Notes under the pieces: generated by a model
Seen by the model: the letters and a program-made list of their open reading frames with translations, nothing else
What the model was told of the DNA's origin: nothing
The model's database searches: none
Origin: Oculina patagonica
Lineage: Eukaryota
Assembly: GCF_052425735.1 (NCBI RefSeq)
Contig: NC_135766.1
Location: forward strand, 25,172,001 to 25,236,000
DNA: 64,000 nucleotides
Direction: 5' to 3'
In this document: positions 44,872 to 45,536 of the stretch, one piece after another
Layout: each line of letters starts with the position of its first letter
How positions within the stretch are numbered: the first letter of the stretch is position 1
Translations under genes and position numbers: made by a program

Positions 44872-44943
44872 GCCCCGGTAGTGTAACGGGTATCACTCCT
44901 GCCGCTGAGGTAGGCAATCGAGGTTCGAGTCCTCGCTGGGGAT
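44872..44943 (+). tRNA. tRNA-Gln(CTG)-like Pol III gene inside the TIR (non-canonical)
   Basis: Cloverleaf: acceptor CCCCGG/CTGGGG, D stem GTG/CAC, anticodon stem CCTGC/GTAGG with loop CGCTGAG, T arm CGAGG-TTCGAGT-CCTCG. T10 terminator from 44945. G at position 33 and a 1:72 mismatch are atypical. Confidence 0.65.
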
Positions 44944-45536
44944 ATTTTTTTTTTCCTTGTGTCAATGTTCACTAAGCCCTAGTGGCCGCGCACCCTGGGA
45001 ATGAACGTGTACAAAGTTAGCAAGACCACCATCCTATAGATATGGTTCACAAAGTGCCATACTGTCCTTGTGGTATCTGGAACTCAATACTTTGCACTAA
45101 ACGCATGCGCAGATGAGTCTACGCGATACACTCACGATTGATAATTAGTTACCTCTCTTGTGAAGACCACAAAGGTTGTCTCAGAAAGCGCCATGCCTTC
45201 CTTATGGTATGGTTCTTCCTGGCACTAAACGCATGCGCAGATGAGTCTACATTGCTTTTTCTAGGTCGGCGATTCTGAAAAAACGCACGCTTGTGAAGCT
45301 ATTTAAAAAAAACACGTCAGAGAGGGGGGATGAGGGGGTATCCCCCTTTCTCGGTTTTACTGGGAACGAGTACGAATCGAGCGGTGAGAGTGTTTATATC
45401 TCAAAAGATGTCGACAAGTAAGTTATTAAATATTCAGTTATGGAGAACGATCAACGTGGGTACGATTGAAACTATATCAACGTGTTGCGGTAGGTTTCCC
45501 ATCTGGGGCATGCTGTTGGACACAACAGTGGGAGGA

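Follow-up and report, generated by a model that had tools for sequence, protein, structure and literature searches.

The terminal inverted repeats (TIRs) of a Polinton in the 64-kb stretch of DNA analysed here (the window) carry a 72-nt tRNA-like gene at 44872-44943, which, judged by its layout and its conservation in related elements, is a real, non-canonical and probably selected cassette of Polinton ends. We tentatively favour, as not far from an even proposition, the reading that it specifies a selected, non-decoding RNA polymerase III (Pol III) tRNA mimic RNA, because it combines features that work against decoding with the lack of a stable amino-acid identity, and because the element has no apparent need for a reader of CAG or UAG codons.

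The carrier element and its terminal inverted repeats

The right third of the window is occupied by an element which its genes and ends identify as a Polinton/adintovirus of ~20.5 kb, running from AGTAGT at 44245 to beyond the window, with its right end at about G000:C9:25236782. Its features, with those of the tRNA-like gene, are as follows.

44239-44244 (+): 6-bp target-site duplication AGGAGA, second copy past the right end (G000:C9:25236782)
44245-45122 (+): left TIR, first bases AGTAGT, 99% identical to the right TIR (879 nt)
44276-44796 (+): outer TIR block, made up of ~155-180-nt repeats that contain CCAAT, CACGTG and TGACGTCA motifs
44797-44973 (+): swappable slot with the tRNA-like gene; sibling L034/L117 has other sequence there in an otherwise identical TIR layout
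44872-44943 (+): tRNA-like gene, type A, 72 nt, discriminator U73, oriented inward into the element
44879-44889 (+): Pol III A box, recognised from the sequence; T8, A14, G18 and G19 invariant in the alignments
44903-44909 (+): anticodon loop C32 G33 CUG A37 G38 (CGCTGAG), with purine 33 and a pairable C32-G38
44922-44932 (+): Pol III B box, recognised from the sequence and the variant alignment
44945-44954 (+): T10 run, predicted Pol III terminator, one spacer base after the gene; length differs among copies
45030-45375 (+): inner TIR repeats with CGCATGCG palindromes, common to TIR types without the cassette
45537-49403 (-): protein-primed family B DNA polymerase (PolB; PF03175, E 4.7e-48), reading outward to the left TIR
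54926-56008 (+): retroviral-type integrase with a C-terminal chromodomain (PF00665, E 4e-13; PF00385, E 2e-5)
57520-58923 (+): putative major capsid protein of the double-jelly-roll type (0.98 in ESM Atlas feature hits; PF21738 in 15-24% of cluster members)
58926-59495 (+): putative adenain-type protease (weak PF00770, E 0.013, below cut-off; gene order)
59535-59562 (+): decayed internal tRNA-Asp(GTC)-like remnant in the protease-ATPase spacer
59628-60293 (+): putative packaging ATPase (weak PF04665/AAA, below cut-off; Walker A motif)
63320-63685 (+): PLA2-like (PLA2X-type) gene (PF08398, E 6e-12), reading outward to the right TIR
63775-64000 (-): inner part of the right TIR, the rest lying past the window edge

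The original prediction had placed the gene in a viral TIR and at both ends of the element, and both points hold, with a right-TIR copy just past the window (within G000:C9:25236060-25236179, minus strand). The outer TIR block at 44276-44796 may be Pol II enhancer- or origin-like. Pfam and PDB searches with the capsid ORF (57520-58923) gave no match. The integrase core lies in a frame that is open from 54926, ~155 codons before its first ATG (55391), which suggests splicing or fusion to an upstream ORF. Between PolB and a GRF-zinc-finger gene the element has ~4-5 repeats of ~210 nt (50866-51792). A 6-bp duplication was present in 9/13 element end pairs examined, two pairs lacking a called terminus and two being non-matching. 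Elsewhere in the window there is an array of tRNA-derived SINE-like repeats at 33490-36060 (-), with four Rfam tRNA matches of 30-37 bits, and a radical-SAM and B12-binding ORF at 9944-11293 (-), of which a partial duplicate with 96% identity lies 13 kb off, near 23866-24679.

ARAGORN made a single tRNA call in the 64-kb window (44871-44944, +, anticodon CTG), and the Rfam tRNA model matched 44872-44943 with 36 bits (gathering score 29, E 1.5e-5) in a permissive scan of 44200-45550; a fast whole-window Rfam scan at the gathering threshold missed the gene, and relaxed ARAGORN settings gave mostly noise. These matches and the sequence itself bear out the predicted 72-nt cloverleaf with A and B boxes and no SINE body, the T10 run following after one spacer base. 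Folded alone, the type A gene has an ordinary stability (z -1.1, with 28/200 shuffles equally good) and its minimum-energy fold has a merged D arm in place of a clean cloverleaf, so that the cloverleaf is assigned from the model matches and covariation, not from folding energy. Compared with a canonical tRNA gene, type A has the cloverleaf, the A and B boxes and the terminator, and lacks U33 and a paired 1:72, the latter being a G1·A72 mismatch.

Distribution, conservation and mosaic ends

A BLAST search of the genome DNA found 33 close copies, 32 of them in element ends and one in a broken end: 25 type A copies with identical 72-nt bodies, seven of a variant B, and a decayed copy in the broken end (C12) with indels in the acceptor, anticodon and T arms. 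Type A is present at both ends of 11 elements, at the single known end of two, and facing a B end in one. An exact D-arm pattern matched 40 sites genome-wide (26 A, 7 B, 2 E and 5 others, four of which are host Gln/Gly genes) and a further exact pattern 35 sites (25 A, 7 B and 3 G), counts that, like those from BLAST, would miss more diverged relatives. The third variant, G, was reached via a T-arm pattern; it is found on C4, close to the tip of a truncated element end, and on C1187, where a composite element bears it at each outer end. Both B and G occur with their own flanks in public runs as well, and the TIR of the window's element was matched in 20 public runs, two of them labelled coral metagenome and the others coded, from which a coral is the likely host. 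A host SINE head inserted only here, which was the alternative attached to the original prediction, does not account for these 33 copies; a SINE head was rejected given that there is no body or tail and that close copies are confined to element ends.

Thirty elements with a close capsid were tallied by hand (29 capsids at 97-100%, one partial at 89%). Fourteen have A, three have B only, one has G, three have types C/D, and nine have none at the ends examined, with four of the nine judged on one end and A/B/G excluded there by the genome-wide patterns. The A/B/G family is present in 18/30 siblings and absent from 12/30, and we describe the cassette as an optional accessory module which appears dispensable for integration. 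No A/B/G gene was found in 33 metagenome loci with capsid relatives, most of which end before the TIRs. In IMG/VR there was no match for the capsid, PLA2X or two motifs, while the ATPase matched four stretches but yielded 0 loci, and the prokaryote genomes searched gave no match.

Over the 72 nt, A matches B at 61/72 and A matches G at 53/72 positions (49-61/72 overall for A, B and G), whereas their 100-nt flanks are no better than shuffles in all three comparisons. The 3′ end is followed within 1-3 nt by T10 (A) or T6-T8 (B, G), and the downstream flanks are unrelated among the variants. In a five-variant alignment 88% of cells pair, compared with 43-57% in slid controls. Pairs 2:71, 30:40 and 32:38 change on both sides, in line with the compensatory stem changes expected of sibling copies, and several others go via G·U; the covariation score was equalled by 3/500 shuffles, in a test that disregards relatedness, with three of the five rows being near-identical G copies and pair 32:38 included only after the alignment was seen. 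One internal pair is broken in G (a G·G mismatch at 5:68). Among the 25 type A copies 0/72 sites vary in the gene, versus 10/120 in unique flank (Fisher p=0.008) and 17/201 in flank including the inner repeat (p=0.005), p values that are optimistic because these copies are related and recently amplified, which overstates their independence. A contig of organism D carries C44934T in type A, with a G·U pair retained, and in one run (X13) there are minor variants with a disrupted D stem or with a base missing from the B box (depth ~60 of 2000-3900).

The clade captures tRNA genes repeatedly, with four hits in the 33 metagenome loci. The protease-ATPase spacer, which holds the decayed remnant in the window, contains a more complete Asp-like gene in the 91%-capsid family (L045/L046:8205-8277, -), an Asp gene without a T arm in L164:1358-1415 and an intact-looking Met(CAT) gene in L171:1564-1637 (+), and is, as judged from these loci, a recurrent tRNA gene slot. 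Met and Arg genes are found outside the spacer in L147:4591-4664 (+) and L159:407-480 (-), respectively. The Met(CAT)/Arg(ACG) genes in L147, L171 and L159 look canonical, are situated inside or beside related Polintons, and are diverged from the sampled host tRNAs. L045/L046 also has a second decayed tRNA-like sequence on the strand opposite to the Asp-like gene, and one Polinton-borne Met gene has a GGG/CCC-type anticodon stem. Type E (internal, U33, GTC) was considered as a relative of A and B and, matching at 43-46/72 only, was classed as a separate capture.

A further source of tRNA-like sequence is a ~440-bp host miniature inverted-repeat transposon (L193-L199) with an internal tRNA-like segment. 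By sequence comparison type F derives from it, and type C probably does. G matches its tRNA-like segment weakly (74% over 62 nt, 42-44/72), and A gave no match. Pieces of the miniature transposon are fused to Polinton inner-TIR sequence in L056 (L056:3679-3751) and L199. The type D head (L044:4603-4727 and L116) has an Asp-like 5′ end and a ~45-nt insertion between the A and B boxes, and occurs in each of the two TIRs of an element whose contig is 50 kb long.

Capsids of L031-L044, L055-L057 and L118-L120 are 99-100% identical, yet at least six TIR types are found with them, and PolB is 66-73% identical to that of the window in several elements with 99-100% identical capsids; modules appear to be exchanged among such elements. 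Elements with type-B ends (G000:C14:13.54-13.56 Mb, C2:13.13-13.15 Mb and C1:26.76-26.78 Mb; L220-L224, L027-L030) are missing the greater part of PolB, carry a further PLA2-like gene within both outer TIRs, and are likely non-autonomous composites. The element at G000:C10:13927509-13947744 (L021, L029) combines one TIR of type A with one of type B at its opposite end, the two sharing their outermost bases only, and has a matching 6-bp duplication.

Such mosaic ends with swappable slots, together with the fact that any TIR sequence automatically sits at both ends, are what would be expected if the cassette were carried neutrally, having been captured as a host tRNA or as a tRNA-like segment of a repeat, homogenised to both ends and amplified in a recent burst. 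The derivation of type F and probably C from the miniature transposon and the decay of the internal Asp-like gene in this lineage fit as well; from the decayed gene and the likeness of G to the transposon it follows that capture and loss without benefit occurs here. The likeness of G to the transposon and the damaged minor variants in the single run also count against a selected mimic, as do the 5:68 mismatch of G and the siblings without the family (12/30). We nevertheless consider neutral carriage quite unlikely, as the type A gene is free of variable sites next to a varying flank (0/72 vs 10/120) and A, B and G have diverged while keeping their pairs amid unrelated flanks; the broken-end copy on C12, with its arm indels, shows what decay looks like here.

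Decoding, ancestry and possible roles

The anticodon loops are CGCUGAG in A, CACUAAA in B and UGCUGAA in G. Position 33 is a purine in 5/5 variants, compared with U in 131/131 host tRNA calls (from overlapping loci). Positions 32 and 38 can pair in A (C-G) and G (U-A), while B has an ordinary C32·A38; the mismatch G1·A72 is common to A and G, with 1:72 paired in B. The discriminator is U, C or G among the variants, and the anticodon is CUG in A and G and CUA in B, with C34, U35 and A37 invariant. On this comparison the abnormal decoding loop has been retained rather than drifted. G33 had been taken to speak against normal decoding, which stands in so far as it lowers decoding; it does not preclude decoding, since G33/A33 occur in natural mistranslating tRNAs, in which G33 is reported to curtail decoding (PMC11415595).

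The description of the gene as Gln-like applies to parts of it. Type A matches host Gln tRNA at 13/16 positions of the D arm, 5/7 of the anticodon loop and the discriminator, and its variable region is also Gln-like. The body as a whole is not nearest to host Gln: the best overall matches are Asp (46/72), Gly-CCC (43), Gln (41) and Glu-TTC (41), a thin margin for Asp in a host panel without Ser, Leu, Tyr, Phe, Cys and Trp, and a separate panel placed Val, Lys, Thr, Ile, Asn, Ala, Pro, Met and Arg below these four. Asp is ahead of Gln in the acceptor (11/14 vs 5/14) and the T arm (14/17 vs 9/17). Relative to host Asp 19/21 pairs are kept despite 26 differences, for which p is 0.027 if the positions are fixed and 0.00005 if they are free. 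This comparison presumes Asp ancestry and shows tRNA shape only, and was set aside as proof of continuing selection.

These data allow a second reading, in which the genes would be real tRNAs of low efficiency, A and G reading CAG and B the stop codon UAG, at a rate lowered by purine 33; an Asp-like body with a Gln-like loop may give such a tRNA a mixed identity. The 7-nt loop, the invariance of C34, U35 and A37 and the CUG shared by A and G are in keeping with an anticodon that a synthetase or the ribosome recognises, and count against the mimic, as do the C32·A38 and paired 1:72 of type B. The matches to host Gln, the purine-33 mistranslating tRNAs and the canonical-looking Met(CAT) and Arg(ACG) genes of related elements point the same way. 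We regard decoding as unlikely, given that the discriminator and 1:72 vary among the variants and that a 32-38 pair shuts the loop in A and G. The codon usage of the elements does not call for it either: CAG is not enriched in 17 element ORFs (76 vs 129 CAA), the stretches of four elements with B ends have no in-frame TAG inside matched genes, and read-through of the TAG of the window's PolB adds just 19 codons before a TGA. As CAG is not enriched and in-frame TAG was not found, there is no sign of a demand of the element for a CAG or UAG decoder, and the host genome has Gln(CTG) tRNA genes. A more far-reaching proposal would be an animal DNA virus lineage with damped purine-33 tRNAs, an Asp-bodied CAG reader (A, G) and an amber suppressor (B), which would cause mistranslation or read-through of host messages, at a low rate that is tuned, and whose cassettes are exchanged between ends; we consider this combination very improbable. 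A small-RNA guide against the element's own genes was rejected, as no match or complement of type A of at least 11 nt was found in the element interior.

For the favoured non-decoding mimic, the gene in each TIR would be transcribed towards the element interior by host TFIIIC and Pol III, with termination at the T run. With its purine 33, a pair that closes 32-38 and an unpaired 1:72, the RNA would be excluded from efficient translation, and the intact L-shape would decoy host proteins that recognise the shape of a tRNA or an oligo-U 3′ end. Candidate targets of this kind are La, tRNA-sensing stress kinases and tRNA nucleases. The nearest working model for such a decoy is the uncharged vtRNA of gammaherpesvirus 68, for which a similar action has been proposed.

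The original prediction also offered a boundary element that shields the provirus from silencing. In such a reading the DNA itself would act, as a TFIIIC/Pol III roadblock or insulator at each end with the RNA as a by-product, so that transcription would not cross the TIRs, either outward (by Pol II, from the terminal genes) or inward (from the host), and double-stranded RNA would be avoided. The terminal genes PolB and PLA2X both read outward, head-on to the cassette, and in three other siblings (types C/D) the TIR region bears an unrelated head in which A and B boxes and a T run accompany a poor cloverleaf, which amounts to a convergent acquisition of Pol III promoters. TFIIIC requires only the A and B boxes. 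Yet beyond these boxes both the acceptor and the anticodon stem are conserved, as is the unusual loop; types C/D point the opposite way, and in 9/30 siblings the ends examined have no cassette of Pol III type; moreover, the cassette is placed inside and not outside the enhancer-like outer block, which argues against a roadblock or silencing shield. We thus hold a purely DNA-based role to be improbable, even though yeast tDNAs are reported to block intergenic Pol II progression (PMC4228148); a TFIIIC roadblock and a role for the RNA are compatible and could coexist.

Comparison with known systems

To our knowledge, non-coding genes of animal Polintons have hardly been described. We found no published report of a tRNA-like gene in Polinton TIRs, an annotation that supplements and subscription papers could hold, and the main text of a coral polintovirus survey, taken without its supplements, does not mention tRNA (PMC11131425). 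Among small double-jelly-roll viruses, polinton-like viruses and virophages likewise have tRNA genes, with 558 reported (PMC12220804), and tRNA genes are flagged in Fig. 6 of a further study for viruses with other replicases (PMC8502044). Those of polinton-like viruses are given a codon-compensating reading and come mostly from protist viruses, whereas the present gene has purine 33, lies in TIRs and is cassette-swapped. The natural mistranslating tRNAs share with it the purine 33 and a body and anticodon that indicate different amino acids; they are cellular genes shown to decode (PMC11415595), while the Polinton variants differ among themselves in identity elements and would at most be predicted decoders. 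The heads of tRNA-derived SINEs also have A and B boxes in a diverged body, and differ in that the Polinton gene has kept its stems and has no body or tail.

The carrier belongs to what we take to be a wider Polinton/adenovirus assemblage, and the adenovirus VA RNAs, with which the original prediction drew a parallel, have similar intragenic A and B boxes and an oligo-T terminator, their genes having been hypothesised to be derived from tRNA genes (PMC7589676). VA RNA is described there as ~160 nt with a terminal stem, a central domain and an apical stem, in contrast to the 72-nt cloverleaf of the Polinton gene, which offers no long duplex for PKR or Dicer, and the Rfam scan of 44200-45550 gave no VA family match at E<=10. 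Because the three-domain VA RNA fold is absent, antagonism of PKR or Dicer is not implied, and this part of the parallel was dropped.

Gammaherpesvirus 68 vtRNAs/TMERs are similarly virus-borne, Pol III-type, tRNA-shaped and near a genome end (PMC4337559). These vtRNAs are reported to be non-aminoacylated and to have a phenotype of their own, a precedent for a mimic, and a single vtRNA that ends at its T run, without its miRNAs, gives a phenotype (PMC4337559). There are eight TMERs, which run on into miRNA hairpins (PMC4337559), compared with one Polinton gene per TIR which ends in T10; at the sequence level the latter has the tRNA-like 5′ module and no downstream miRNA hairpins. The carriers differ as well, a herpesvirus in one case and a Polinton of a likely coral host, with a predicted RNA, in the other. 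If decoding did take place, the gene would represent a virus-borne mistranslating tRNA in an animal. If it is a selected tRNA mimic, it would be the Polinton counterpart of the herpesvirus vtRNAs and a living example of the step from tRNA to viral RNA that has been proposed for VA RNA, and siblings with and without the cassette, with near-identical capsids in one genome, provide a natural comparison.
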